Part shown: in pieces, positions 2,820-33,363 of the stretch
How positions within the stretch are numbered: position 1 is the first letter of the stretch
Layout of the letters: each line of letters starts with the position of its first letter
NCBI GenBank assembly: GCA_026388185.1
Contig: JAPLKG010000008.1
Span: forward strand, 198,184-262,183
DNA: 64,000 bases
Reading direction: 5' to 3'
Source: Candidatus Eiseniibacteriota bacterium
GTDB lineage: Bacteria; Eisenbacteria; RBG-16-71-46; JAFGJU01
Notes under the pieces: generated by a model
Databases searched by the model: none
Seen by the model: the letters and a program-made list of their open reading frames with translations, nothing else
Told to the model about the DNA's origin: nothing
Translations under genes and position numbers: made by a program

Positions 2820-4142
2820 TTGAAGATGGAAATCTCGGTCTTCGGACTTGGTTACGTCGGAACGGTCACGTCCGCCTGTCTTGCAAAACTGGGACACGTT
2901 GTCACCGGGGTCGACATAAACGAGTTCAAAGTTGACTGCCTTGCAAAGGGCAAGAGTCCCATAGTCGAGACAGGCATCGAGGCTCTCATCCGCGAGATGA
3001 AGGCCGCCGGAAGACTCACCGCCACGTCTTCGGCTGCGGAGGCCGTGAACTCGTCCCGGGTCAGTGTCATTTGCGTAGGAACGCCTTCTCGCGAGAACGG
3101 CTTCATGAATCTTGGATACGTCGAAAGAGTGTGCAGGGACGTCGGCAAGGCCCTGGGCGCGGTCGGTCACTTTCACGTGCTCATGTTCAGAAGCACCATG
3201 CTGCCCGGCACCGTGGAGAAGGACCTGATTCCGATGCTGGAAGAGACTTCGGGGAGAACGGCGGGTTCCGACTTCGGCGTGTGTTACAACCCTGAATTTC
3301 TGAGGGAAGGCAGCGCCGTTTCCGATTTCTTCAATCCACCTTTCACGCTCCTCGGGGTAAGCGACGAGAGGACCGCTCGCGTTGCAGAGGAAGTTTTCTC
3401 GTCTCTCAGCGCCCCGGTCGTCAGGACGACATTCAAGGTTTCCGAGATGGTCAAGTATGTGTCCAACTGTTTTCACGCACTCAAGGTTACGTTTGCCAAC
3501 GAGATTGGAAACCTATGCGGGCACGAGGGAATGGACAGTCACGAGGTCATGAAGATTTTCTGTATGGACAAGAGGCTTTCCATATCCGAACAGTACTTGG
3601 TTCCCGGCTTCGCTTTTGGCGGTTCGTGCTTGCCAAAGGATGTCAGGGCGCTCCTGGCCAAGTTCCGCGAGGCAAAGATCGAAGCTCCCGTCGTTGACGC
3701 GATCTTGAGGAGCAACGATAACCAGATACGGATTGTTCAGAGGATGATCGAAGACACCCGGAAGAAAAAGATAGGAATACTGGGCGTGAGTTTCAAGGCG
3801 GGCACGGACGACCTGCGCGAAAGCCCGATTGTCAAGGTGATCGAGAGTCTTGTCGGCAAAGGATTTGCAATAAAGGTGTACGACGAGAATGTCGAGCTTT
3901 CCAGGCTTCTCGGCGCAAACAGGCAGTTCGTGCAGGAAGAGGTCCCTTATCTGCCGTCGATCATGTGTTTTTCTGTGGACGAACTCCTCGACTTTGCGGA
4001 GGTCGTGGTCATAGCGAATAAAGGTGTGGGATTCGCCGAAATGGGCAAGAGGCTGCGGAAGGATCAGGTCGTAATAGACCTCGTGCGGGTTGTGAAGGAC
4101 GGTTCTGAAACGGCCGGCACTTACAGGGGAATAAGCTGGTGA
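2820..4142 (+). CDS. UDP-glucose/GDP-mannose dehydrogenase family (AlgD-like)
   Basis: FGLGYVG Rossmann, NPEFLREG, GFAFGGSCLPKD catalytic Cys, FKAGTDDLRESP, C-terminal GISW. Confidence 0.93.
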   Translation: MKMEISVFGLGYVGTVTSACLAKLGHVVTGVDINEFKVDCLAKGKSPIVETGIEALIREMKAAGRLTATSSAAEAVNSSRVSVICVGTPSRENGFMNLGYVERVCRDVGKALGAVGHFHVLMFRSTMLPGTVEKDLIPMLEETSGRTAGSDFGVCYNPEFLREGSAVSDFFNPPFTLLGVSDERTARVAEEVFSSLSAPVVRTTFKVSEMVKYVSNCFHALKVTFANEIGNLCGHEGMDSHEVMKIFCMDKRLSISEQYLVPGFAFGGSCLPKDVRALLAKFREAKIEAPVVDAILRSNDNQIRIVQRMIEDTRKKKIGILGVSFKAGTDDLRESPIVKVIESLVGKGFAIKVYDENVELSRLLGANRQFVQEEVPYLPSIMCFSVDELLDFAEVVVIANKGVGFAEMGKRLRKDQVVIDLVRVVKDGSETAGTYRGISW

Positions 4143-19227: not shown

Positions 19228-19239
19228 TGTGAACCCTGT

Positions 19240-19324
<85 letters not shown>

Positions 19325-19339
19325 AAGAGATCGTTGTGT

Positions 19340-19400
19340 GAGCGTAATCCGGAAAGGATAGTGTGTTACAGCCTCTTATCCGGAAGTGGCTTAAGCCACA
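19340..19400 (+). repeat. Left-end motif, copy 1 (partner 21092-21152)
   Basis: Ungapped alignment 46/61 identical; TWATCCGGAA twice at a 31-bp period. Confidence 0.8.
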
Positions 19401-19444
19401 CCTTTCGATCATGGTTTGTCTCGTAGGCAGGACGAGGTGAAGCG

Positions 19445-20620
19445 ATGAATTTGGGTGCAATCCAATCCGCGCTTTCTGACGCCAAACTGGACGGTTGGCT
19501 ATTCTATGACCATCACCACCGAGATCCGATTGCGTACCGCGTGCTCAAGCTCGACGCTCCAATGTGCACACGCCGATGGTACTACTTGATTCCTGCCGAA
19601 GGTCAGCCAACGAAGCTCGTTCATCGTATCGAGCGGAGCAATCTTGAAGCTCTACCGGGAACCGAGCATCAATATTCGTCCTGGCGCGAACAGCGCGAGA
19701 AGCTGCAGGAGATGCTCGCTTGCAAGGCAAAGGTTGCGATGCAGTACTCTCAGTTGAACGACATTCCCTACATCGGTCTGGTAGACGCAGGCACGGTTGA
19801 ACTGGTAAGGAGTTTTGGGGTTGAAGTTGTATCCTCGGCGGACTTGGTACAACTGTTTGAAGCGCGCTGGTCGACCGAAGCCCTGGCTCTTCATCTCGAA
19901 GCGGGGAAAGTAGTCCACGCTGCTGTCGACACAGCATTCAGAACGATCCGCGATGCCGTACAAACACGCGAAGCAATCGGCGAGTACGAGGTTCAACAGG
20001 AAATCGTCCGATTTTTCGAAACGCACGGCGTCGAGTCGGATGACCCGCCCGTTGTAGCAGTGAACGAAAACACCGCCAACCCCCACTATTCGCCAACGCT
20101 GCAAACCTCCCGTCTGATACGGGAGGGCGATTTTGTTCTCTTGGACGTTTGGGCGAAGCGAAGAGCCCGAGAGGCCGTCTATTTCGATATTACCTGGACG
20201 GGATATGTCGGCGAGGCCGTTCCGGATCGGTACGCGAGGATCTTCGAAATCGTTCGAGAGGCCCGTGACGTGGCCATCGAACTTGTCCAACAAGCCTTGC
20301 GCGGAGGTCGCCCTCTGCGCGGCTACCAGGTGGACGAAGCCGTGCGCGATGTCATCACGCGCCACGGATATGGTGAGTATTTCATCCACAGAACGGGACA
20401 TTCGATCGGCGAGGATGTCCACGGCAACGGCGCCAATATTGACAACTTCGAGACGCGCGATAACCGCGCGATTATTCCTCGAACATGTTTCTCTATTGAA
20501 CCTGGAATTTATCTACCTGAATTCGGCGTGCGAAGTGAAGTGGATGTTTACATCGAGGAAAGCGACGCGCGAGTGACCGGTGACATTCAAAAGGCCATTG
20601 TTCCCATCCTCGCCAAGTAG
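19445..20620 (+). CDS. M24 family metallopeptidase (Xaa-Pro aminopeptidase-like)
   Basis: NPHY, LLDVWA, FDITW, HRTGHSIG..VHG, FSIEPGIY, VRSE metal ligands. Confidence 0.92.
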   Translation: MNLGAIQSALSDAKLDGWLFYDHHHRDPIAYRVLKLDAPMCTRRWYYLIPAEGQPTKLVHRIERSNLEALPGTEHQYSSWREQREKLQEMLACKAKVAMQYSQLNDIPYIGLVDAGTVELVRSFGVEVVSSADLVQLFEARWSTEALALHLEAGKVVHAAVDTAFRTIRDAVQTREAIGEYEVQQEIVRFFETHGVESDDPPVVAVNENTANPHYSPTLQTSRLIREGDFVLLDVWAKRRAREAVYFDITWTGYVGEAVPDRYARIFEIVREARDVAIELVQQALRGGRPLRGYQVDEAVRDVITRHGYGEYFIHRTGHSIGEDVHGNGANIDNFETRDNRAIIPRTCFSIEPGIYLPEFGVRSEVDVYIEESDARVTGDIQKAIVPILAK

Positions 20621-20654
20621 GGAATTCGCGCCATATCTAGATCGTGTTCTTTTT

Positions 20655-20762
20655 CCCCACGTGTGCCCCGAGAGCTAATGATGCTGTCAGAATTTTCGAC
20701 GCGTGAGTCTCAAGGGCAGTCAGTTCCTCTTGTCGCAGTTCTGTACAAGCCGCGCCCTCGGC
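20655..20762 (+). repeat. Right-end motif plus att-like core, copy 1 (partner 31592-31699)
   Basis: Ungapped 89/108 identity; ends in GCCCTCGGC. Confidence 0.85.
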
Positions 20763-20790
20763 GACCACACTACCACATGCCGTTTCGTGA

Positions 20791-20819
20791 TTGACACAGG
20801 ACTTGTCTTGTGATATGTT
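20791..20819 (+). promoter_or_regulatory. sigma70 promoter at the head of element 2, facing the cassette array (Pc-like)
   Basis: TTGACA-17 nt-TATGTT with TG extended -10. Confidence 0.65.
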
Positions 20820-21091
20820 TGCAGCACTCGACGCGACAGGTATATCGCCTCTTGCATGACCAGCAGTTACGCGTCCGCACAGTTCAGGAACTTTTGCGGT
20901 ATTAGGGACCCCTAGACCGTGACGGTCTACGCACACCCGCTGAGCGGGGGAAGGGCAGGGCGAACGGAATCATAGGGTGTGGGTCTAGCGACACGAGTGT
21001 GGTCTTATGCCGAAACAGCGCAACACCACGTGAGATCACGGGAGTTTGGCTAATAGTCCGAACGAAGCGTAGCTGGGAGCCAATTGACAAT

Positions 21092-21152
21092 GAGTGTTAT
21101 CTGGAAGAGATAGCGTTCTACATGCTCTTATCCGGAAGCGACGTAAGGCATA
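21092..21152 (+). repeat. Left-end motif, copy 2 (attI/operator-like)
   Basis: 46/61 identity to 19340-19400; directly followed by GTTCGGG and the SD of the first cassette gene. Confidence 0.75.
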
Positions 21153-21172
21153 GTTCGGGAAAGGAGCAGAAG

Positions 21173-21475
21173 ATGGGTGAGAACAAAGCACATAAGGCAG
21201 TAGTCCACCGCATCATTCACCAGTATGGTGGAAAGTGCGATCCCGAGAAGGGAGCTGACGTCAAGATCCCCTTTATTGGGACTGTGGAGGCCGAAACTGA
21301 CAAGATAGTCTCCGTGGCTCTTACTCAACTCCGAGGCTACCGCGGACCCGTGTATGTCGCAGGAACAAACGCTGTCGAGAAGACATTTGAGGTCAAGACA
21401 GGCACGACGATTGGTGTAACGGATAACAAGGGCAATATCATCAAATCGTCAACACGAAAAAGGCGATGTCCCTGA
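21173..21475 (+). CDS. 100-aa hypothetical protein, first cassette-like gene
   Basis: AAGGAG SD, ATG 21173; stop codon lies inside the left box of an attC-like site. Confidence 0.75.
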   Translation: MGENKAHKAVVHRIIHQYGGKCDPEKGADVKIPFIGTVEAETDKIVSVALTQLRGYRGPVYVAGTNAVEKTFEVKTGTTIGVTDNKGNIIKSSTRKRRCP

Positions 21476-21526
21476 CCAGGCCCTGGAGCGTATGGGCTAC
21501 CGCGCCGCTCAACGCCATCGTTAGGC
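21470..21526 (+). other. attC-like recombination site (57 bp)
   Basis: CCCTGAC-CAGGCC-CTGGAGCG...CGCTCAA-CGCCATC-GTTAGGC: perfect GTTRRRY, inner boxes pair with one extrahelical G; left box has GAC instead of AAC. Confidence 0.65.
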
Positions 21527-21574
21527 CTTCAGCGAAGACACGAACATCCACGTTGCCTGAAAGGAGGTGCGACA

Positions 21575-22327
21575 ATGAGCCGAGTTGTCGCAAGCACGTC
21601 CGCAGCGCTGTTGATCCTGTTTCTTGGCTGCATGGGCCAGGAGCACACTTCATCTGACAAGGCGAAGAGTTTGCCCACGCGTCAGTACGAGTCAGCGGCC
21701 ACAGGGGCTCGGACGCCTCAGGAGGTCGACAAAGCGACCACCGCACCTACCACGAGTCCCACGGACCCGCACAGAAGTGGACAGGCGCGGGATAGGATCA
21801 CCGCAATCAACCCGTCGAAGATTCATATTGATTCTGAGGGCCGTATTGTGACGAAAGATCTTTCCTATGAAGAAATGGGGAAATTGGCAGAGGCCCTAGC
21901 GGAGGCTGATGAATCTGGTGAGCTTCAATCATCTAGAGAATACGACGTAAGTAAGGACAATAGAGGCAGAACTACTGACATGTCGGAAAGGCCACAGGGC
22001 GAAGCGGCTGGCGAGTGGCGCGTCGAGTTCGAATACACCGATCCACAATTGCGTGCAGTCGGCATCGCGGACGCGGCGCGCGCCATTGATGAGCATGGTA
22101 ATGTACTGGCTCAGGCTACGCTTCTCAGGCTGCTCACGGGCGAGGGTAACCAGTTCAAGGGTGCCGAAGTTGAGGAAAGGCATTTCGATGCTAGAGGGCG
22201 CGTTTACTTCAGCTGCAAGAGCCAATTCAGCTTCCCGCTTGGACGAAAGACCGGCGAGTCGGACGCACGAGGACGCAGGACCAGGGACTATTTCTCCCAG
22301 TGGCCACTGCTGGCGGGGATCCCGTAG
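21575..22327 (+). CDS. Hypothetical lipoprotein (cassette-like)
   Basis: AAGGAGG SD, signal with lipobox FLGC, starts 49 nt after the attC-like site. Confidence 0.75.
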   Translation: MSRVVASTSAALLILFLGCMGQEHTSSDKAKSLPTRQYESAATGARTPQEVDKATTAPTTSPTDPHRSGQARDRITAINPSKIHIDSEGRIVTKDLSYEEMGKLAEALAEADESGELQSSREYDVSKDNRGRTTDMSERPQGEAAGEWRVEFEYTDPQLRAVGIADAARAIDEHGNVLAQATLLRLLTGEGNQFKGAEVEERHFDARGRVYFSCKSQFSFPLGRKTGESDARGRRTRDYFSQWPLLAGIP

Positions 22328-22416
22328 ATCGACGATGCAGCCCACCAGCGAACACGTCCGCCCTGGCTCCGATGACCATCAGTCCGCCTTGCGTGGCCCA
22401 CGTGCGAGAGACCACG

Positions 22417-22839
22417 ATGGTACCTGTAACGGGACTCTACGCGGGCGGCAAGCATCCGCGCGACTCGGCAATCTTGTTGAGATTGCCGAGGGCATTGAAT
22501 ACACACCCGAACTATCCCAGGACGGAGCGATGGCTGTTGTGCGTTCAGTCTTTCGTGGAACGAGTAGGCTGCTCGGCCCGTCCGGGTCATGGTGAATCTG
22601 CAGCGGCAGAGTGGAACGTGTGGGCGCAGGCGGTGCCATATGTGGAAGCGGAGATCGCCGTTCTTGCCGAAGGCCGGTGGCTGGACCCGGCTCGCGACGC
22701 AGCGCGTGTGCACATCTGCATCAATCCAGCAAATGAAAACCGATTCTTCGCGGTTCCTTACAGAACGGCTGGCACGCTGACACGCGTTCGTTTGACCATC
22801 GTAGACAACGCGACCGTTTACAAGTTTGCATCGCCTTAG
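22417..22839 (+). CDS. Hypothetical protein or fragment
   Basis: Open frame between attC-like half sites; no recognisable motif; start uncertain. Confidence 0.3.
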   Translation: MVPVTGLYAGGKHPRDSAILLRLPRALNTHPNYPRTERWLLCVQSFVERVGCSARPGHGESAAAEWNVWAQAVPYVEAEIAVLAEGRWLDPARDAARVHICINPANENRFFAVPYRTAGTLTRVRLTIVDNATVYKFASP

Positions 22840-23285
22840 CCAACTTCATTGGCAAACGGAAGAGATACTTGGGATACTGGAGCTGAGCACGACGGGAACC
22901 CGATGGGTGCAGATCCGAATCAGGAATGAACGAGATGGGAGGTGCCCCCCCGTCCTCGCGGCAGGAACGGTTCGGGTCACCCCGGAATGCTAATTGCGCG
23001 TACGTAACATCTCGCCAGCTCAACACGCGACCAGAACATGTGGTGCTTACATCGGAGGACCAAAGACTGGGCATCAACGCACAACACAGATCGCATTCTA
23101 GCTGATTCGGAGAGCCGCGGTTTGCGCAGCGTGATTCGTGCCTGGTGATACGAGTCACTGCTTAGCATGATCGAGCTTGGTCATCGGGAGACACAGCTTA
23201 ACGGAAGGATTGACGTCGCGATTGGGGGCGGTCGCATTCAGTTCGGCAGAGTGGGTAGTTGGCGTGCGGCTGCCTGACTATCTAT

Positions 23286-23307
23286 GTCGCTGATCTTATC
23301 GTTGAGC
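23286..23307 (+). other. attC-like right arm
   Basis: GTCGCTGAT-CTTATC-GTTGAGC (GTTRRRY); no intact left box nearby. Confidence 0.45.
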
Positions 23308-23316
23308 GAATTGCAG

Positions 23317-24768
23317 ATGGGATACCGACTCAACGTTGTCCTAATAATGCCGATACTTGCGGGCTGTCTGCTCACATCATGCCGGGGAACAAATCACTAT
23401 GATAGGAAAGAGGAATCTAAATCGCTCGGAGACACGCCTAGTCATGGTTCGCTATGGACACGGCCCACGACTTATGCGGGCAACCTCTACAACAAGATAC
23501 AGTTATCAGACATTCACGTTGAAGGCGATTATACAAGGACTACGTCCCCGGATGGACGAATCGTGATTAGTGAGAGTGTGGTGGTTGAAGCACACAATTC
23601 CTTCAATGGAGTCACCGAATTCGAGAAGATTAACCTAACTGTCGGCAGGCATCCAATATCCAAATACAGGAGAGTTCATAAGGATGACCTAGGCAGGACC
23701 GTTGTCCTAGAAGAGGGCGAAGAGCCACCAGAGGATATCCTTGTTGAACAAGCTACTAACTTCAAGCCAACTCTGACCTACTATCGTTTCTATTCCGATT
23801 GCGAATACTCTTTGGGCAGGTGCGAGTTACCTGAAATGATTGTGAGAACAACATGGGACGATTCTAGTGACAAAAGAATACGCGATTTGAGCATTAGAAA
23901 AGAGACACTCACCAGGGAAGTAGCTGAGGTACTGCACCACGACGGCCCTTTCTCCCTTGCAAAACTCTGGAGATGGTACATTATGGCAGAATATCAAAAG
24001 GACGCGAACGAGTGCTCCCGAGAACACCTGTTCAATAAATACTCTCCTTCTACCAAAGCCAGAGAGGAGGTGGCGGTAAGAATTAGGATAATTGACAGCA
24101 TCAATGTTGCAGTGAAAAACCTCGACAATCAGAACATTCGGAGAGAATTCATCGCGCTTCTTTCAAAACCCGATTCAGTTTACGGGAATGGTAATACAGA
24201 GTATTACACACAAAGGGTGATAACTACTCAACCACTTACGGGCAAGGATGTTTTTCACTGCTATCACGAGATTTTGAACCATCTGAGAGAGAGTCAGTAT
24301 TCGCACAGCCCCCTGTTGGACGGGATAATCGAATCGTTCAAAGAGATAAAAGACGATCGTGGCAATACTGTGATTGTTCTCACTGGTTACAGTGTAGTTG
24401 ACCCAAAGACTGGTTTTGTTGCAGGAGCCCCTCGCTACATTGAATTTCGCGTTTTCCCTCCGCCGTTCAGAGTACTGACACGTAGCCAGATAAGCAGTCG
24501 TATAGAACAGGTTGAGAAGCAACTTGAGAGAGGAGTAGGTGAGGATGAGATAGGATTGCCGTACTTTGAGACTCTTGAGTACATGCAGAAGGAAAAGGAG
24601 ATTCTCGAAGAGATGATTGAGGAGTGGTCCCTGACAAACGAACCACAGATGATTGTTTATCTACCCGAGATCCTCCTTTTCCACGCTGGTATTCCCATAG
24701 AGAGTTACACGTACAAGTATGATCCGCAGAAAGGAAACGGGGCAGACCATTATGTAGGTCTGAAATGA
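23317..24768 (+). CDS. Hypothetical lipoprotein, visibly lower GC than flanks
   Basis: Long ORF with A/T-rich codons, lipobox LTSC; start moved to ATG 23317 because 23284 lies inside the attC-like arm. Confidence 0.75.
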   Translation: MGYRLNVVLIMPILAGCLLTSCRGTNHYDRKEESKSLGDTPSHGSLWTRPTTYAGNLYNKIQLSDIHVEGDYTRTTSPDGRIVISESVVVEAHNSFNGVTEFEKINLTVGRHPISKYRRVHKDDLGRTVVLEEGEEPPEDILVEQATNFKPTLTYYRFYSDCEYSLGRCELPEMIVRTTWDDSSDKRIRDLSIRKETLTREVAEVLHHDGPFSLAKLWRWYIMAEYQKDANECSREHLFNKYSPSTKAREEVAVRIRIIDSINVAVKNLDNQNIRREFIALLSKPDSVYGNGNTEYYTQRVITTQPLTGKDVFHCYHEILNHLRESQYSHSPLLDGIIESFKEIKDDRGNTVIVLTGYSVVDPKTGFVAGAPRYIEFRVFPPPFRVLTRSQISSRIEQVEKQLERGVGEDEIGLPYFETLEYMQKEKEILEEMIEEWSLTNEPQMIVYLPEILLFHAGIPIESYTYKYDPQKGNGADHYVGLK

Positions 24769-25096
24769 TTCATGAAGAAGGTGAGCATGTTCAGCGGCGA
24801 ACATGTCGCAGCTTCAGTCAACAAGGGATTTGCGCGAATAGCACTGGCAGAATAAAGAGCCGAGAGTGGAAGCGTGGTTTGACATGGAAGAAAGGCTATC
24901 TCCATTTCGGTGCGGTCTCATTGGCGAAGGTACATGGAATGCACATAGATATGCTGAGAAGCGGCGGGAGACGACACGATGTCGGTTCAGTGAAAACGCG
25001 GGAACTCCAACAAAGGCGCGCACGTGCACTGAGATTCCGCCGCGCTTCATCCCCGCCGGTAATGCCTAACGCTGGGGCGCAGGAGGAGGGTATCTT

Positions 25097-25918
25097 ATGT
25101 CTGGAACTACTGAATCGATTCTCGTAGGTCTTGGTATAGGTCTTGTTGTTCTTGCGGTCAGCATGGCGATCAAACCTGTACCACGGCGCGCTGCGATCCT
25201 GATGGCCGTTGGCACTGGGATTATCGCGTTTGTGCTTTGGCCGCGGGCCGTTCTGGTAGAAGTGCCAGATCTGTCTGACCTCAGTAGAGATGAGGCCGAA
25301 CTGGAGCTATCCTCCGCGAAGCTCGACGGAGCGCCGCAACCTCAGGAGGCTCCAAACACGCGTCCAGACCACGTCGTGCCGATGTCACAGAGCCCACTTC
25401 CAGAGACTAAGGTTCACCGCGGCACCCTGGTTCGGTATTCCATCAGCACGCCAACATCCACAGTGTCTGGGAAGGCCACCGACTCCGATAGCACACGGGG
25501 GCATGTCTTGGTGTCAATATTCTCGCCGAGGCATGGCGGTGAGGTTGTGCCTGTGCGCGGGGCGGATAACATATTTAGGTTCGATGTGGAAGGTACACTC
25601 GAAGGTGTCGATCTCGCAAGATATTCTCTGCTCCTATGGGTCCAACCTGTTGCGCCGCCGAGCGACCAGCCCGGATGGTACTTGCAGCGGCTCCCAGCCA
25701 ATGGCGTTCGTTCAATCTCGGGAAACAGGTGGTCCGGGGTGTGTCAGATCGGTAACCAGCAGTATCCGCCGAATGAGGGCGACATGCTCGAGGTCGTAGC
25801 CTCTGTTGTGCCAGCCGGCGAGGCCGAACGCCTGGAAGCTAGGCAAGGACCTCTGACGGCTGTTGTGGTTCCCGGGTCCGTGTCACAGGTTGTTAGAGTC
25901 AAAGTGCGCTTGAAGTGA
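25097..25918 (+). CDS. Membrane-anchored PASTA domain protein
   Basis: GGAGGAGG SD, two N-terminal hydrophobic segments, VEVPDLSDLSRDEAELEL...SQSPLPETKV.RG..V PASTA pattern. Confidence 0.75.
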   Translation: MSGTTESILVGLGIGLVVLAVSMAIKPVPRRAAILMAVGTGIIAFVLWPRAVLVEVPDLSDLSRDEAELELSSAKLDGAPQPQEAPNTRPDHVVPMSQSPLPETKVHRGTLVRYSISTPTSTVSGKATDSDSTRGHVLVSIFSPRHGGEVVPVRGADNIFRFDVEGTLEGVDLARYSLLLWVQPVAPPSDQPGWYLQRLPANGVRSISGNRWSGVCQIGNQQYPPNEGDMLEVVASVVPAGEAERLEARQGPLTAVVVPGSVSQVVRVKVRLK

Positions 25919-25925
25919 GATAGCG

Positions 25926-26034
25926 CTCTAACCAGTAACTTGAGACGGACGAATGCTGCGGCGTCACAGGTCTTGCGCGAGTGATGGCAACAGTCACGCC
26001 GCCTCCGCCCCGCCGCTCAGCGACATCTTTGGTA
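25926..26034 (+). other. attC-like site (109 bp), right box degenerate
   Basis: CTCTAAC...CTTGAGACGG...GCGGCGTCAC/GTCACGCCGC inner stem...CCGCTCAGC-GACATC-TTTGGTA; parallels the right arm of the 21470 site but G of GTT is T. Confidence 0.55.
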
Positions 26035-26284
26035 TGACTCCCGCTGCCAACGTGACTCCGATTTAGCTCTGCCGCGGGTGACTCGGCCCGCCGCGTTGCC
26101 GGATGCGCAGCCTTGCATCGCGGAACGATCTTTGCGAAACCCGCTGCAAGTCCGCGTATCGGCAGTGGCGAGGTGGGCGATTTGCTTAGCCATCCACCGC
26201 GCGATGGTGACTCTTCCGGACGCCGGCAAGACAAGAGTTCCACCGGCGAAGGAACACCATGTACATTTGTCAGGAGATGAGGCC

Positions 26285-29200
26285 GTGAAAGGGGTTAGTA
26301 GTCCATATGCAACAGGGGGAGGCGGCGTGCGTTTAGAGCATGAGATCGCCGCGTCCGCCTTGGCAAGCTTGCTACTGGGCCAGCCCGTCGATGGACTGGG
26401 CGATGATGTCACGCCGATGCGCGTGGCGATGCAGCAGGAGGTGTATTCACCTGTTGACGATATTCACGTGCACGGTACCTTCCCGGGCGGCGAGCGTACA
26501 CTTCAAATCGCGTGTAGGCGGCGACCCACGGTTGGTAAGAGTGATGAATCTACAGTCAAGCTGTTCACTGACTATGTGAAGGTCGTGCTCGACAAGCGGA
26601 CCGCGATTGACAGAGGTGAGATACGACTCGGCTTGGCAGTCGCCGGGCCATATGGGCCGGCGACTGAACTTGCGGTTCTTACAGATACCGCTCGGCTTCA
26701 GCCTGACCGTGCCACCTTCGAAAGCGCTGTAGCTGCACCTGGCGCATACTCCGCGGACATCCGAGCGCGGCTAACGTATGTTGACGAATTGGTGGCTGAA
26801 TCTCTGAGCAGGGTGCTGCGGCCCGCAGGGCCTACGCCTGATCCCAAGGAGTTGAGCTGGGTCCTTCTTCGCGCGCTGTTTGTTCTTCAGACGCAGCTTG
26901 AAGGAAACGTGGCGCCAGGGCGGACCAACGTTGTCGCCAGGCTGCAGGTTCTTACAGGAAATACTCCGCGCGCAGAGCAGCTACGCCTGCGATTGGTTGA
27001 GATCGCATCACAGGCAGAGATTCGAGCTGGATCGATTGACCGTCCGATGCTGAGAAGACAGCTGCACTCGTTCGGGCCGCTCGGACCATCTCCCGACTTC
27101 GGCTTAGCGAAGTCACAGATCACCCTCCTTGAATCCGAACTGAACCGAAGAACGCAGCGCTCCTTGGCGGCTTCGGCTGCGAGCGGTTCATTCATACTCG
27201 ACCGATCGAAACAGCAGGCGGAACTCGTGGACTGCATCTCAAAGGTACCACAGAGTTCCGTCGTTCTCGTGCGAGGTGAGCCGGACGTTGGGAAATCCGC
27301 GCTGGCACTTGAGGCGATAGCATTTATAAGAGAAGCTGGTGGTGCAGCAATCGCGATGAGCCTTCGAGATCTGCCGCCGAGTGCACTGAGTCTCAAGTCT
27401 GCCCTAGGCCTTGCACCTGTCGATCTATTTGCCGCAGCGCCCTCGGCCCCCGTGAGCGTGTTGCTTCTCGATGGGGCTGAAGTGATACAGGAAAGTGACG
27501 CCGGTGCAGTCGGCGTCCTACTCGACGCCGCCTCGACTACGGGAATGACCACTGTTCTGGTAGCACGCGACGACGCGGCTGGATCTGTGCTCGACTTGCT
27601 GCGATCACGAGGCCATGACATTGCGCTCGAGTTCTCAGTGGCGCCGTTGTCCGATGAGGAGATCGCGACGATCGTGGAAGCGATTCCCGAATTGGCGCGG
27701 CTCGGTTCTGATCCGCGATCGGCGTGGTTGCTGCGTCGGCTCGGTCTCATCGAGCTCTTGCTTCAAGCTACGCAACGCGGGACGAGCCTGCCGGGGACGC
27801 TTTCTTCAGAGGCCGAGGTCTTCGCCACGGTGTGGTTGAGCCTGATTCGCCAAGACGGAAGGAGTGTCGGCGGGATCGCACCGGATGACCGTGAAATCGC
27901 CGCAATTAGTGTCGCACGTCAGCTCTTAACTGGTGCACCGAGTGTGGTCACTGGCCCCGCACCGGCTTCGCTGCGCTCTGACGGCGTTCTTCTCTCACTG
28001 GACCGGTCAGCAGCCTGGCAGAAGAGCGACCGATTCGCTTCAGATGTTCTTCGCGATTTTGCAGCAGCACGACTCCTCCTGCGGGAAGGCCTGCAGGTGT
28101 TGCTCGGCTCCACTGCGCCGAGGTGGGCAATTCGGGCAACGCGCCTCTACTCGCAGGCTAGGCTATCGGATGCCGCTTCCCGCGGAGAGGGTGCAATCGC
28201 AGCTGCCTGGGCGGAATTGCGAAGCGAGTTCCGAGGACTCTCGTTGAAGCACGGTGCGCGATGGGGTGAACTTCCGTGGGAAGCGCTGCTGACGGCTGCG
28301 TGGGCCGATCGTGCCCTATCTGAACTTACGCCACAACTGCTCAGTGACCCTGATTTGCAAGCAGAGGCAATTCGCTGTGTGAAACTCCGCTTTTCGGACG
28401 CGGGTGCTTGCGACCCAGTCGTCGCTGCCCCGCTGGTATCATGGCTCACGAATAAAGCCGCCGCGCTGGACCGACCTAGGTCTTATGACAAAGATCCGGT
28501 TGTCGAACTCGTTCGATCGTGGCTACGCGGCGTCGGCCGGCGCGAAGTGCTGGGGAAAGAGATCGATAACTTCAGGCAGCTGCGGTCTCAGCTGCGAGAC
28601 GCTCTCTTGCGCCGAGCAGTGGAGCGCAGCGAGGAGGAGCGTATCGAGTGCCTGGGTCTGCTGGGGTCTGAGGCAAATGAAGCAAGCACGCAGGCCTTGC
28701 GATCGATCACCGAGCATCATCCCGAATCTCTACACCCGATTGTAGAGAGTTTGGACGCGGCCGGGCTGCTGGCGAAGCAGAACGTGGCGCTGCTCGCGGA
28801 TCTTACGGAAGCGTACTATGTCAAGAAGCCGCACCGATCTTCCCGGGACAGTTCGTGGGACGATGAAGGCATCCGCCGTCACCGGGGCGGTGACCTATAC
28901 ACTCCGCTGGCGGCGTGGTATCGCGGCCCGTTCCTTTTCCTCCTTAGAGGGGATCCAGAACGTGGCATCCGGATGATCAACCGCATGCTGGAGCGCGGTG
29001 CTCGTCGGCGCGTCGAAGTACTTCAGGAGCTCAGCGGACACCCACGCAAGAACACCCCACAGGATGAGAAAGAGAACGGCATTTCATTAGACCTTCTTGG
29101 GTACGGCGACCGTCTGTACATCGGCGACCCGCATGTTTGGTGTTGGTACCGAGGGTCGTCAGTCGGCCCTTATCCATGCATGTCCGCGCTCTTCTCCGTC

Positions 29201-31240
29201 GAGATGATGCTGGACGAGCTTGTGAAAGCAGACTTGCCAGCTCGAACACTTGCGTCCTGGGTGCTGCACGATGCAACGACCCTAGCTAGCCCAGGACTGA
29301 TCTATGGATTTCTCGTGCGTCACATTGAACAGGTCACGGACGAACTTGATGGCTTCCTTTCCGTGCCTGAAGTATGGGAGCTTGAGATCAGCCGAAGGGT
29401 TTCTGAGGGTCAGCTTCATGTCCAGGGCGCAGATTCACCAGAGCGTGTCGGCAGAGAGCGCCGCCGCTGGACACCCTTCGAGGTTGCAGCGAAGCTCGTC
29501 TTCGACGCCGCTCAGCGCGGTGACACTAAAGCGTTGGAAAGACTGCGGAGCATAGGAGAGCGCTTGCTTGAAAGGGCCGGAGGCGTGAGTGCCCCCCCGC
29601 ACGTCCGCCAATGGGTGGCCTATCTTGACAGGAACAGTTATTCGGTGGAGCAGCAAGGTGATGATATAGTGCTGAAGGTGAAATTTCCCGAGGATGTCGT
29701 CCAGGCGATGGCACCCGCGCGGACGCAGTCTGCAAGAGTGTCAGAAATGTTCAGGTTGCTGAACCGCTACCGACCGCGCCACGATACTCCCTACCGGTAT
29801 GCTCCAGCAAACCCACCGGACGAACTCGAGCTTGCCAAAGACATCGCGACGGCCAAGGAGCTACAGGCAGAGTTGGTGGATCAGCCACTTGACACATTAC
29901 GTGCCGCGCTCGCAGGCGTGGCTGCGACGGTGATTCAGGCCGCGTCGGGTAGCCTTGTTGTACCTCCCGAGAGCTTCCGCTGGGCCGTTCCGCTTCTTGT
30001 GGAGTGTGCGACACGGCCTCACATGGACGATCTTGCGACAGAAGGGACGATATTCCCTGATGGGGCCGATCGCAAAGCAGCACTGGTCCTCCCGAGGGCG
30101 CTGGAGGCCGTCGATCAACTCGACGCTGCAGCGACTGGGCAGGTGGGAAGCGCCATCACTGCATGTGCGACGAGTTTCTTCTTGGAGGTTCGGCAGAACG
30201 CTGCTGAAGGGCTGCGTCACATACTCCAAAGCCCGTGCAAACTGATCAGCGGCGGGCGTTGCTGGCACGAGCTAGCCTGGGCAGCCATCGAGGCGGCCGC
30301 CCGGAGTGTCATTCTGGGTCCTCAGTCCGCGAATGGCCGGCGTCAGTTAGGAGCGATAACGGGTGACGTTATCACAGGGCTTGAAACAAGTTCGGAGCGT
30401 GACCTGATGCTCACGCACATCGCACCGGCTGTAATCTGCACGATCGACGCGGCTCGGGTGAGCTCCTGCATTAGCACACGAGCAGCACACTTACGAGATG
30501 CATTGCTAAACGCTTACGCGCGGTCGGCATGTCATTGGGCGAAGAACAACTACGACTGGCGTAACGAGCAACATGCCGCATTCGCAGCAGCAGTTCTGCG
30601 CTGGGCGTCAGGGGGAAATCATTCCGTGATTGTTGAGATCGCAAAGCGTCTGCGGTCCTCGCCTTTGGCGTTGGGCAATTTCCTTCACGCACTTACGATT
30701 GTTGCAACCTATCAGGCCTCAGCCGTGCAGCCGCTGGCGGAGACATGGTCCCAACTGATGGACTTGGGATTGGCAGTGCTTCGTGACCGAACGCTCGCTA
30801 GCGATCGGCACGACGTCGACGAATTACTGCAAGACCTTGTTCCTGATCCTAAGCCTTCAGCCTACGTCCAAAACATAGATGAGGTTTTGAAACAGGCCAA
30901 GGCACACTGGCTCTCGATCGAGGTTGTAGCCGCACACATCGATGAGTGGCTCCGGCACGCTTTCGGTCGCCATTGGTGCATAGACCCACTCCTGGCCTTC
31001 TTGCAGGCACAGCCGGTTCAACAACAAGCGAACCCCGGGCTGAAGTGGATCCGACGACTCGTGATTGGGGAGGGCGGAATTGCTCAGACGAGCGGATTTT
31101 TCTTGGTGGGTTGGCTCGGGGAGCTGCGTGACTCACATGTTCTCGGCACCGACACCTGGCCAGAGTACCGGGCAATCGTTGACGGTCTGGTTCTGGGCAA
31201 TTTCGCGGGAGCGCGCGATCTGCAGCGCGGCGACGAGTGA
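26285..31240 (+). CDS. Large STAND-like P-loop NTPase (~1650 aa) with N-terminal PD-(D/E)xK-like domain; candidate anti-phage sensor
   Basis: SSPYATGGGGV.LEH..VDDI..LQIACRR N-terminus, Walker A GEPDVGKS, Walker B LLLDGAE, long helical C-terminus; start re-set to GTG 26285 after AGGAG. Confidence 0.75.
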   Translation: MKGVSSPYATGGGGVRLEHEIAASALASLLLGQPVDGLGDDVTPMRVAMQQEVYSPVDDIHVHGTFPGGERTLQIACRRRPTVGKSDESTVKLFTDYVKVVLDKRTAIDRGEIRLGLAVAGPYGPATELAVLTDTARLQPDRATFESAVAAPGAYSADIRARLTYVDELVAESLSRVLRPAGPTPDPKELSWVLLRALFVLQTQLEGNVAPGRTNVVARLQVLTGNTPRAEQLRLRLVEIASQAEIRAGSIDRPMLRRQLHSFGPLGPSPDFGLAKSQITLLESELNRRTQRSLAASAASGSFILDRSKQQAELVDCISKVPQSSVVLVRGEPDVGKSALALEAIAFIREAGGAAIAMSLRDLPPSALSLKSALGLAPVDLFAAAPSAPVSVLLLDGAEVIQESDAGAVGVLLDAASTTGMTTVLVARDDAAGSVLDLLRSRGHDIALEFSVAPLSDEEIATIVEAIPELARLGSDPRSAWLLRRLGLIELLLQATQRGTSLPGTLSSEAEVFATVWLSLIRQDGRSVGGIAPDDREIAAISVARQLLTGAPSVVTGPAPASLRSDGVLLSLDRSAAWQKSDRFASDVLRDFAAARLLLREGLQVLLGSTAPRWAIRATRLYSQARLSDAASRGEGAIAAAWAELRSEFRGLSLKHGARWGELPWEALLTAAWADRALSELTPQLLSDPDLQAEAIRCVKLRFSDAGACDPVVAAPLVSWLTNKAAALDRPRSYDKDPVVELVRSWLRGVGRREVLGKEIDNFRQLRSQLRDALLRRAVERSEEERIECLGLLGSEANEASTQALRSITEHHPESLHPIVESLDAAGLLAKQNVALLADLTEAYYVKKPHRSSRDSSWDDEGIRRHRGGDLYTPLAAWYRGPFLFLLRGDPERGIRMINRMLERGARRRVEVLQELSGHPRKNTPQDEKENGISLDLLGYGDRLYIGDPHVWCWYRGSSVGPYPCMSALFSVEMMLDELVKADLPARTLASWVLHDATTLASPGLIYGFLVRHIEQVTDELDGFLSVPEVWELEISRRVSEGQLHVQGADSPERVGRERRRWTPFEVAAKLVFDAAQRGDTKALERLRSIGERLLERAGGVSAPPHVRQWVAYLDRNSYSVEQQGDDIVLKVKFPEDVVQAMAPARTQSARVSEMFRLLNRYRPRHDTPYRYAPANPPDELELAKDIATAKELQAELVDQPLDTLRAALAGVAATVIQAASGSLVVPPESFRWAVPLLVECATRPHMDDLATEGTIFPDGADRKAALVLPRALEAVDQLDAAATGQVGSAITACATSFFLEVRQNAAEGLRHILQSPCKLISGGRCWHELAWAAIEAAARSVILGPQSANGRRQLGAITGDVITGLETSSERDLMLTHIAPAVICTIDAARVSSCISTRAAHLRDALLNAYARSACHWAKNNYDWRNEQHAAFAAAVLRWASGGNHSVIVEIAKRLRSSPLALGNFLHALTIVATYQASAVQPLAETWSQLMDLGLAVLRDRTLASDRHDVDELLQDLVPDPKPSAYVQNIDEVLKQAKAHWLSIEVVAAHIDEWLRHAFGRHWCIDPLLAFLQAQPVQQQANPGLKWIRRLVIGEGGIAQTSGFFLVGWLGELRDSHVLGTDTWPEYRAIVDGLVLGNFAGARDLQRGDE

Positions 31241-31591
31241 GTCCTGGGTACACGATGCGGCGTCGAGCCATGACGCGACCAACACGGATGAGGTCTCCGC
31301 GAAGACGTGCGCGCGTACATATGTGTGTTTATGAGTAGGATTTTCCGCAAGTGCAACTGCCCACCGGACAAGCAGGAGAGGGCGACGCTGACTGTCGCTT
31401 GACCAGGCGGAGGTACTGTCGGAACTATGGGCTGGCTGAGGGTTGGTGTCGTGAACTAATCGAGGGGGGTAGGGGCCGATGCTCTGATCTTCAACCCAAT
31501 GAGGGAGCAGGAATCGCAAGAGAGGCACAGAGACGCCGCAGGAGCAGGTGGGTGAGCTTCAACACATATCCTTATCCTTAGCCCTTTTTCT

Positions 31592-31701
31592 CCCCACATG
31601 TGCCCCGAGAGCTAGCGATGCTGTCAGAATCTTGCCCACGCGAGCCTCGAGCCACGTCAGTTCTTCCGGTCGCAGTTCTGTACAAGCCGTGCCCTCGGCA
31701 A
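31592..31701 (+). repeat. Right-end motif plus attR-like core, copy 2
   Basis: 89/108 identity to 20655-20762; GCCCTCGGCAA identical to the tRNA-Leu 3' end. Confidence 0.85.
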
Positions 31702-31710
31702 GAAGAAACC

Positions 31711-33363
31711 TCATGCGGTCGAGCCGGCCGGAACGGCAGTCTCTTCTTTCCCGGTCTCTTCCGCTCTTGTCTCCTCCGTCCCATCGATGTTTCTCGGCAG
31801 ACACACCTTGAACGTGGCTCCTTTGCCTTTTTCGCTCTCGACCGTAATCTTCCCTTTGTGCAGGTCCACGAATCCCTGCACGAGGTACAGACCGAGGCCC
31901 AGACCGTGATAGCGACCTTGCGCCGGCTTGGAACCCTGGGTGAAGAGACCGAAGATCCTGCTCATCTCGTCGCTGTCCAGTCCTATTCCGTTATCCTTCA
32001 CGCACAATTCTATCCACTCGCTGGTCGCGCGAGTGCCCACCACGACCTCGCCTCCCTCTTCAGTGAACTTTATCGCATTTCCTACCAGGTTGAGCACGAT
32101 CTGCCTCAGCTTCGTTCCGTCTGCGCGAATGGGATCCAGTTCCGGGGCCAGGTCCAGCTTGACCTCGATTCCCTTGCACTTTCCGGTAGGCTCTAGCGCA
32201 ATGACCGCGGAGCGAGCGATTTCGTTGACGTCCGTTTCTTCCAACTCAAGTTGCAGCGTGCCCTTCTCGAGCTTGGAAAGGTCCATGAGCTGTTCCGTGA
32301 GATCCAGCAACTTGGATCCTTGTTCATGCATTATCGAGACGAATTTCTTCCTGTCGGTTTCCGAAAGCTTGCTGTCCTGCTCGTCAAGAAGCTCGGCGAG
32401 CGAGACGATGCACGTGAGAGGCGTTCTCAATTCGTGGCTCAGCGTGGCGACAAAGACCTCCTTCATCTGGTTCAACGTGGCAAGCTCTTTGTTGGATTCT
32501 TCGAAGAACAGTTTTCTCGCGTCCACCTTCTCGTACACGAGAGCCTTTCGGATGACGCCCGCGATGTTCTCACCGAAAGCACAGAGCAGGCGCAACTGCG
32601 ATCGCTTGAAGCGTTCGTTCGAACCGACGCGGGTGACGTTGAGCACGCCGACGGTCGTCTTTCTTAGCTTTATCGGCACGCTCATCGCGGAACATATATC
32701 GTTGTCTGCTTTTGTGTAGGGCAGGAACCTCCCGAGCTCGTGTCCGTGCAGCAAGAGAGGCTTTCCGTTGGCCGCCACCCAACCTGCGATTCCCTCTCCC
32801 ACGGCGACTCTGTGGTTCTGCATTCTCTCGCTGTCGAGGCCCCAGGCAGCCTTGCACTCGAGCATACCCGTGGACGGGTTCACTATCATGAGCGAGGCCC
32901 TGTCGGCGCCCAGGCAATTCGGGAGCCTGCGCACGACTATCTTGATGATGCCGTCGAGCTTCAATCTCATGTTTATGGCGGTGCCGACCTCGAAGAGCGC
33001 CGAAAGCTCGGACAACTGAGCCTGCAGGGTCGCGGCGTTGACCTTCTCGTTGAAAAGCCTGGTCCTCAATTGTGCCAGGTTCGTCTGGCCCTGAAGCATG
33101 TACAGGCAGAAGAGAACGACAAGGCCCGCCAGGCCCAGAATCACCGTGCTGCCGCCCTGAAGAACCGGAACCGTCGAGTCGGTCAAATCCTCAGTAGCCG
33201 ACAAGTAGAGGAGTCCAGTGGCCGTGGCAAACGCACTCAGAAGAAGAAACACAACGATCCAGTGTCGAATGTTGGATTTCTCGACCGGACCGAATGGTTT
33301 CCTGCTGCCTCTCTCCTTTGATTCCATCACTAAAGAAGATCCTCCATGGGAAGGGGATTCCAT
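31711..33363 (-). CDS. GAF-domain sensor histidine kinase
   Basis: Two TM helices, GAF (GEGIAGWVA..GKPL), SHELRTPL, NLVGNAIKFT, DNGIG, GLGLGL. Confidence 0.93.
   Translation of the reverse strand: MESPSHGGSSLVMESKERGSRKPFGPVEKSNIRHWIVVFLLLSAFATATGLLYLSATEDLTDSTVPVLQGGSTVILGLAGLVVLFCLYMLQGQTNLAQLRTRLFNEKVNAATLQAQLSELSALFEVGTAINMRLKLDGIIKIVVRRLPNCLGADRASLMIVNPSTGMLECKAAWGLDSERMQNHRVAVGEGIAGWVAANGKPLLLHGHELGRFLPYTKADNDICSAMSVPIKLRKTTVGVLNVTRVGSNERFKRSQLRLLCAFGENIAGVIRKALVYEKVDARKLFFEESNKELATLNQMKEVFVATLSHELRTPLTCIVSLAELLDEQDSKLSETDRKKFVSIMHEQGSKLLDLTEQLMDLSKLEKGTLQLELEETDVNEIARSAVIALEPTGKCKGIEVKLDLAPELDPIRADGTKLRQIVLNLVGNAIKFTEEGGEVVVGTRATSEWIELCVKDNGIGLDSDEMSRIFGLFTQGSKPAQGRYHGLGLGLYLVQGFVDLHKGKITVESEKGKGATFKVCLPRNIDGTEETRAEETGKEETAVPAGSTA

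Follow-up and report, generated by a model that had tools for sequence, protein, structure and literature searches.

The window analysed here is a stretch of 64,000 nucleotides (nt) from a genome of Candidatus Eiseniibacteriota (contig C5:198184-262183; the assembly holds 2.6 Mb in 20 contigs and is 97.9% complete). Behind a gene for a leucine transfer RNA (tRNA-Leu), it carries a promoter, a 70-nt box named D2, and four gene cassettes, A to D, followed by a gene for a large NTPase and, on the opposite strand, a histidine kinase gene (Table 1). The array genes are all co-oriented on the + strand, and each cassette ends in a site that resembles attC, the recombination site of integron cassettes. 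The region 21154-26034 is very probably a relic integron cassette array that lacks an integrase: a CALIN, the name given to a cluster of attC sites without an integron integrase, which its authors propose to be a degraded integron (Cury et al. 2016, PMC4889954; IntegronFinder 2.0, PMC9024848). Such clusters are common, the element is of a known kind, and the array itself is ordinary. Its unusual points are the decay visible at each site against an intact homologue, the location in a tandem tRNA island, and the multi-copy module to which D2 belongs.

Table 1. Features of the region, in window coordinates (aa, amino acids; ORF, open reading frame; G/TT, crossover between G and TT)
Feature	Position	Strand	Details
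tRNA-Leu(TAA), attachment point of insert	19239-19325	+	ARAGORN, Rfam
First inserted segment	19326-20762	+	diverged D2 box 19339-19398, M24 gene 19445-20620, repeat D1a 20650-20762; ends GCCCTCGGC
Promoter, sigma-70-type	20791-20819	+	TTGACA-17-TATGTT, faces array
D2 box, candidate attI-like docking site	21091-21159	+	ends GTTCGGG (21153-21159); crossover G/TT at 21153/21154
Cassette A	21154-21520	+	100-aa ORF 21173-21475, function unassigned
attC of cassette A, best preserved	21470-21526	+	R'' CCCTGAC, R' GTTAGGC
Cassette B	21521-23195	+	250-aa ORF 21575-22327; uncertain ORF 22300-22839
Relic attC of cassette B	23059-23195	+	by homology alone; R' decayed to ATCGGGA (23189-23195)
Cassette C	23196-25071	+	5'-truncated; 95-aa gene remnant, 483/494-aa ORF, 236-nt tail
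Relic attC of cassette C	25005-25077	+	R'' CTCCAAC, R' GCTGGGG (25071-25077)
Cassette D	25072-26028	+	273-aa membrane-anchored PASTA-like protein, 25097-25918
Relic attC of cassette D	25926-26034	+	R'' CTCTAAC intact, R' TTTGGTA (26028-26034)
1720-aa AAA_16/STAND-like NTPase gene	26078-31240	+	weak Pfam AAA_16 match; cassette status unsupported
D1b, right-end repeat of second segment	31587-31699	+	113 nt, 82% identical to D1a; ends GCCCTCGGC
GAF histidine kinase gene, native right flank	31711-33363	-	Pfam; orthologue in relative G002 adjoins tRNA-Leu

The cassettes and their relatives

The genes of cassettes A, C, and D occur elsewhere as units bounded by attC sites, with boundaries at G/TT. 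The 273-aa protein of cassette D has 43 homologues, some of them in metagenome-assembled genomes (MAGs) labelled as other phyla, and a weak Pfam match to PASTA. In three loci (L116, L118, and L123) its gene stands between attC sites that score 34-56 bits under the covariance models described below; the upstream attC stops 28 nt before the ATG, and the downstream attC begins 8 nt past the stop codon. Toxin-antitoxin cassettes abound in L116, which is a typical array. The protein travels widely as a cassette, at 56-75% identity in MAGs labelled Saccharimonadales, Acidobacteriota, and Thermoanaerobaculia. It also gives a weak PADLOC match to PD-T4-6, confined to the PASTA part.

The 483-aa protein of cassette C, whose ORF starts at 23317 or 23284 and ends at 24768, has 11 homologues at 42-59% identity. 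In L130, the homologous cassette has an attC on either side, at 860-993 (23.4 bits) and at 3165-3237 (51.7 bits), and 23196-25065 of the window is 70% identical (1899 nt) to L130:1334-3225. The stretch L130:987-1333 is without a counterpart in the window, which implies that a deletion of about 340 nt, just after the relic attC at 23059-23195, took with it the R' box of that site, the start of cassette C, and most of the 95-aa gene.

Cassette A has four homologues, and its 100-aa protein has three relatives outside this genome. One of them, on the metagenomic contig L145, shows the layout of the window: a D2-like box, GTTCGGG, AAAGGAG, an ORF, and an attC. On the other two, L146 and L124, homology with the window starts exactly at TTCGGGAAAGG, and the DNA before it is unrelated. 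The homology of cassette A with all three contigs opens exactly at TTCGGG, which places the left boundary of the cassette at G/TT.

Cassette B is tied to cassette C by its relatives. The C-terminal half of its 250-aa protein (21995-22306) is similar by tblastn (28% identity, E 3e-8) to a protein of 139 aa whose gene stands ahead of the 485-aa gene elsewhere, and a paralogue is found behind another D2 copy at C12:35734-36006. A four-protein operon (139, 256, 485, and 69 aa; domains unrecognised) recurs in metagenomes (L127-L129), and the window retains from it only the 485-aa member and the 139-like domain, the latter fused into the 250-aa protein. Between cassettes B and C, a search for traces of the 256-aa gene found none. 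Given the 139-like C-terminal half and the operon elsewhere, cassettes B and C may have arrived as one unit.

Sites of the array, their decay, and the missing integrase

An intI gene above the curated TIGR02249 cut-off is present in 64 of 206 genomes of the phylum, one of them from the same family. The integrons of the phylum have canonical arrays 3' of intI, with attC sites that span 55-136 nt (R'' GCCTAAC, R' GTTAGGC, two bulged bases) and cassettes of 0.4-1.7 kb, each with a single ORF on the intI strand. In the loci L061-L077, the arrays likewise lie 3' of intI and are co-oriented with it; on the coding strand, the 5' arm of their attC sites has a bulged G (and A), as opposed to C (and A) in class 1 integrons and Vibrio. 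With the bulged G on the coding strand, the main bulged base of the bottom strand would be C, not G. We also considered arrays 5' of intI, and rejected them: a scan of 20 relatives for strict R''/R' boxes and a hairpin returned coding paralogues only.

Rfam has no family for attC sites, and the models used here were trained on the lineage. R1 was built from 24 short attC sites of phylum integrons; in its structure, 88% of cells pair, 15 pairs vary on both sides, and none of 500 shuffles matches it. With R1 we retrieved 94 sites at E <=1e-4, long ones included, which gave model R2; R3 comprises 33 attC sites of the same genome as the window, none of them taken from the window. The window was searched on both strands with filters off and E up to 10. 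The E-values of R1-R3 are approximate, because the models were only briefly calibrated, and the scores are those of our own models, not those of IntegronFinder's model.

An earlier note on this DNA, made from the letters alone, had read the region as integron cassettes of CALIN type, co-oriented, with sites at 21470-21526 and 25926-26034 and a right arm at 23286-23307. The first of these is the top match of the window in every model (R1 23.7, R2 25.2, and R3 36.7 bits; E 2e-3, 8e-4, and 1.3e-6), and the sole R1 match. Its sequence, CCCTGACCAGGCCCTGGAGCGTATGG...CCGCTCAACGCCATCGTTAGGC, is close to other sites of the genome such as GCCGAACCAGCGGCTGGAGCGGACGG...CCGCTCACCCGCAGCGTTCGAG, and is identical at 56 of 72 positions to the attC behind the L145 homologue. 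As the note had observed of this 57-bp site, the stop codon of the upstream gene (21473-21475) lies inside the left box. The 109-bp site was recovered at the same coordinates (R2 14.5 bits; R3 15.0 bits, E 0.29). The window reads TGA GATAGCG CTCTAAC at 25916-25932, parallel to TGA GATTGCG GTCTAAC in homologous cassettes, and the shared offset and junction identify this site as cassette D's own attC; its 3' arm and that of 21470-21526 share 83% identity. The proposed right arm is not attC: it scores 11.1 bits with R2 (as 23196-23307) and nothing with R3, and homology places it in the 95-aa gene remnant or at the start of the 483-aa ORF.

Two relics had been missed, and the cassettes number four, not three. 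The site of cassette C scores 19.5 bits with R3 (E 0.022) and 12.5 bits with R2; it aligns to the attC at L130:3165-3237 without gaps, with 53 of 73 positions identical, and the two lie equally far behind the stop codon of the 483-aa homologue gene. The site of cassette B gave no covariance-model match in the window; over 124 nt (23059-23182) it shares 72% identity with L130:860-993, an attC that itself scores 23.4 bits. The reading of the genes as cassettes is borne out by their relatives, since strong attC sites flank those of the 273-aa, 483-aa, and 100-aa genes at the same distances from start and stop.

Three window sites are thus supported by the attC models, all on the + strand: three fall below E 1 with R3, and three with R2 at E up to 1. 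The distance from 21470-21526 to 25005-25077 is 3.5 kb, and from there to 25926-26034 it is 0.85 kb. The top four R2 matches of the window all lie on the + strand inside the array (21470-21526, 25926-26034, 25005-25077, and 23196-23307, in this order). Elsewhere in the window, R2 stays at or below 9.9 bits and R3 reaches 13.7; the best values in 80 kb of other DNA of the genome are 10.7 and 12.3 bits. Across all control DNA (59 kb of the window and 80 kb elsewhere, both strands), R2 thus found nothing at >=11.1 bits, and R3 nothing above 13.7.

Decay can be read site by site against the intact homologues, as loss of GTT, uncompensated stem changes, and the deletion at one junction. The crossover triplet is gone from R' at three of the four sites, which have ATC, GCT, and TTT in its place. 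This agrees in large part with the note's claim that a key box is defective at each site. The exception is 21470-21526, which retains GTT (21520-21522) and the bulged G; it is less defective than first thought, because its TGAC-type left box recurs in 2 of 33 other attC sites of the genome. The bottom strands of 21470-21526, 25005-25077, and 25926-26034 fold with z of -0.02, +0.28, and +0.35, no better than shuffles, compared with -3.41, -3.45, and -1.50 for the intact homologous sites. Against the marks of a functional attC, GTT in R' together with a stable bottom-strand hairpin, the window sites fall short. We conclude, as the note had suspected, that the array is probably largely frozen, with the cassettes fixed in place, perhaps not cassette A; at most, cassette A could still move. 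The locus is a cautionary case: here, attC models trained on the lineage caught relics that folding energy alone would have missed.

The integrase is missing, as the note had supposed. Six-frame searches with PF00589 and TIGR02249 gave no match on the window's part of contig C5, and no tyrosine recombinase is encoded in the window. There is no intI in the assembly either, where the highest TIGR02249 score, 94 bits, falls short of the cut-off of 265. A complete integron, with intI beside attI and an array, is therefore absent from window and assembly. Outside the window, the genome has at least 35 attC sites, with R1 scores up to 57 bits. They form arrays at C4:77524-90265 (+), C5:514462-516726 (-), and C20:199216-202861 (-), with further pairs and single sites on C14, C12, C3, C2, C8, and C13. 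The array on C4 has 16 sites by R2, with scores up to 52 bits, and its cassette-circle rule is intact: at the variable positions, R' agrees with the next R'' at a mean of 3.2 of 4, versus 1.8 of 4 for each site's own R''. With so many attC sites and no intI above the cut-off, the genome is rich in CALINs and single cassettes.

These well-preserved sites give some credit to a different explanation, in which the array is still active and an integrase from an unassembled part of the genome, or from a mobile element, excises and reorders its cassettes. Sites of up to 57 bits and the 16-site C4 array argue for recent integrase activity; in relatives, intI often lies at contig ends, and this assembly is in 20 contigs. 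Within the array, 21470-21526 keeps GTT and the bulged G. Against this, three of the four R' boxes are without GTT, the stems carry uncompensated changes, fold z is near zero, and no intI exceeds the cut-off. We regard continued activity as improbable.

A slightly less probable explanation is that one cassette only is genuine. Integron integrases also put single cassettes into genomic GWT sites by attG insertion (SALINs; preprint 10.1101/2022.09.11.507474), and such insertions, by recombination of attC with attG, are common (same preprint). Cassette A would then be a SALIN at a secondary site, the downstream genes cargo of the island, and their weak matches chance hairpins or terminators. In keeping with this, 21470-21526 alone is individually significant, and the downstream sites fold no better than shuffles. 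Homology contradicts this explanation: 25005-25077 is 73% identical, ungapped, to the 51.7-bit attC of L130 behind a homologous gene, and 25926-26034 shares its offset and a GATNGCG-GTCTAAC junction with the attC of three homologous cassettes. In addition, no control DNA reached the scores of the downstream sites.

Several observations weigh against the reading as a relic array. Taken singly, both downstream relics score weakly (E 0.02-0.3, with models calibrated only roughly), and the rule that R' agrees with the next R'' is kept at only one of the three window junctions (3/4, 1/4, and 2/4). The homologues of cassettes B and C form an operon in L127 and L128, where attC was not detected close by, and no attC was detectable beside the homologues in L120-L122 and L124. 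Finally, with the assembly in 20 contigs, an intI could lie in a gap.

The D2 box and the tRNA-Leu island

The array is preceded by D2, a box that recurs throughout the genome. An nhmmer search finds about 25 copies of this 70-nt family, which ends in GTTRRRY. Conservation stops at ...AGCCGTA GTT and four further bases that vary; a ribosome-binding site and an ORF come next, and the GTT and RRRY end is seen in about 20 copies. Ahead of many copies stand a terminator and a TTGACAGG-17-TATGCT promoter, and D2 often lies within a block of about 330 nt that comprises the conserved 3' end of a gene (...KAAYAYTDKHVGPRERVGNKGGTLGNRLRAVMAGKK and the stop), the terminator, and this promoter. Further copies are found, for example, at C12:25729, 29042, 32029, and 35342; at C3:118586, 120775, and 123310; and at C8:2629, 13297, and 14091. 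The metagenomic contig L145 also has the box; the other 205 phylum genomes contain no match to a 29-mer of D2 at up to 3 mismatches.

D2 and attC sites keep company. For at least 10 copies, a same-strand attC follows no more than about 2.6 kb downstream, and six of them form modules of D2, one ORF, and attC. In these modules, the four variable bases match R'' of the attC at 19 of 24 positions (GTTCGGC/GCCGAAC and GTTAGCA/TGCTGAC are examples); over all 12 D2-attC pairs, 27 of 48 positions match, versus a permutation mean of 21.8 (p = 0.035). We conclude that D2 belongs to the cassette architecture and was the recipient site for cassette A, which would give it a role like that of attI. Several facts speak against an attI: D2 is never beside intI, about 11 copies are without an attC behind them, some copies follow an attC, the block of about 330 nt contains the conserved 3' end of a gene, and on C13 this block begins directly after the R' of an attC. 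D2 as the attI of related integrons was rejected, with no nhmmer match near intI in relatives. So was D2 as a structured RNA (consensus fold of -0.88 kcal/mol, one covarying pair); the box has no Rfam match.

Three identities are conceivable for D2: a dedicated analogue of attI, a hot spot for attG insertion (10.1101/2022.09.11.507474), and the terminal part of a gene-less cassette that bears a promoter. A bolder proposal, which we advance tentatively and consider rather unlikely, is that D2 with its terminator and TTGACAGG-17-TATGCT promoter is a multi-copy docking site of attI type: a 'distributed integron' in place of one intI platform. In such a genome, some 25 promoter-equipped copies of D2 in 2.6 Mb would each take one to four cassettes at G/TT, although the odds seem to us against it. 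In a variant, the block of about 330 nt may itself be a promoter cassette without a gene, recombining at a site other than a classical attC hairpin. This left boundary is possibly new, and is the sole feature of the locus of which this might be said. If D2 is truly multi-copy and attI-like, cassettes could be expressed from many chromosomal promoters, and the counting of cassette stocks in uncultured phyla would have to change.

The promoter upstream of D2 in the window, which the earlier note had described as facing the array, is the best promoter-like match in 19.2-32 kb (10 of 12 matches, plus a TG extension), and is predicted from its sequence to drive transcription.

All these elements lie in an insertion at the tRNA-Leu gene. 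In the relative G002, the LemA-tRNA-Leu block (C103:2364-3081) is followed by 160 nt and then by the convergent orthologue of the histidine kinase, an adjacency which indicates that 19326-31699 is inserted relative to G002. The 3' core of the tRNA gene, GCCCTCGGC, occurs at 19317-19325, 20754-20762, and 31691-31699; the exact repeat covers 9 nt, inside a stretch of 21 bases of which 16 match. The empty site in G002 and these copies, which bound two segments, support the tRNA island proposed by the note; neither segment has an integrase. The gene directly after tRNA-Leu encodes an M24 peptidase (Pfam), not an integrase. Its orthologues, 83-84% identical and non-syntenic (G002:C29:17848-19020 and G004:C236:1472-2641), stand in unrelated neighbourhoods, which fits the cargo of a small inserted segment.

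The second segment holds the promoter, D2, the four cassettes, and the gene of the 1720-aa STAND-like NTPase. This protein may be a STAND-type defence protein; it has no PADLOC match, and R2 and R3 find no attC between 31241 and 31700. Each segment closes with a D1 repeat, which has a coding-like substitution pattern on the minus strand. Read on that strand (31559-31714 and 20637-20762), D1 gives a 51-aa ORF that shares the bases ATGA with the histidine kinase gene, its ATG overlapping the kinase stop codon, and seven differences between the D1 copies are synonymous. D1 as the native tail of the kinase operon was rejected, as four relatives have no copy of it past the kinase gene; for the same reason D1 belongs to the inserts, and is probably island-borne.

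It is most unlikely that the units were stacked by the recombinase of the tRNA-Leu island and resemble attC cassettes by accident: the array does lie in a tRNA island that is tandem, has no integrase, and repeats its end motifs, but its unit boundaries are at attC sites and G/TT rather than at copies of the tRNA core (no cassette-sized units bounded by tRNA-core repeats were found in the region), and the same cassettes occur in canonical attC arrays elsewhere.

As a relic integron array, the locus would have formed by the successive insertion of four cassettes by an integron integrase, through single-strand attC recombination at G/TT. The first cassette would have joined at G/TTCGGG to the double-stranded, promoter-fed D2, which plays the part of attI, and the promoter at 20791 would read via D2 into the cassettes. 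The integrase gene would later have been lost from the locus, and the attC sites would have drifted, with GTT lost at three of them and about 340 nt at one junction, until none of the four was more stable as a hairpin than shuffled sequence. Two segments, both without an integrase, are inserted in tandem behind the 3' end of tRNA-Leu, and the second of them contains the array. A tRNA island can thus carry a cassette array, and one mobile layer could move the stock of another.

Comparison with known systems

The array resembles CALINs in having at least two attC matches at E<1, less than 4 kb apart and on one strand, with neither intI nor a pseudogene of it in the vicinity, and in having co-oriented cassettes, mostly of unassigned function. 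It differs from them in several respects: its sites were found with lineage-trained models, most of them are visibly dead, with GTT lost and the hairpin unstable, it lies inside a tRNA-Leu island, and it starts at a multi-copy module of promoter and box, with no recognisable attI.

In sedentary chromosomal integrons of the 'inverted' type, as in Treponema denticola, intI is upstream of the cassettes and co-oriented with them. The complete integrons of this phylum are alike in that the array lies 3' of intI with its ORFs on the intI strand, and they share the type of their attC sites with the window; the window differs in being without intI.

Tandem genomic islands at tRNA genes include integrase-less elements that can be mobilised in cis. 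The locus is similar in that the insert lies directly behind tRNA-Leu, a relative has the empty site, and two successive segments have partial copies of the tRNA 3' end at their borders. It is different in that no integrase is found in either segment, the repeat has only a 9-nt exact core in 16 of 21 bases, and the cargo includes an integron cassette array.

SALINs offer a likeness at the left boundary, where cassette A is joined at G/TT to a double-stranded site that is not attC, and in the modules of box, one ORF, and attC (at least six) scattered over this genome. The window differs in having several successive cassettes, and the recipient here is a conserved 70-bp box present in about 25 copies, rather than a random GWT triplet.

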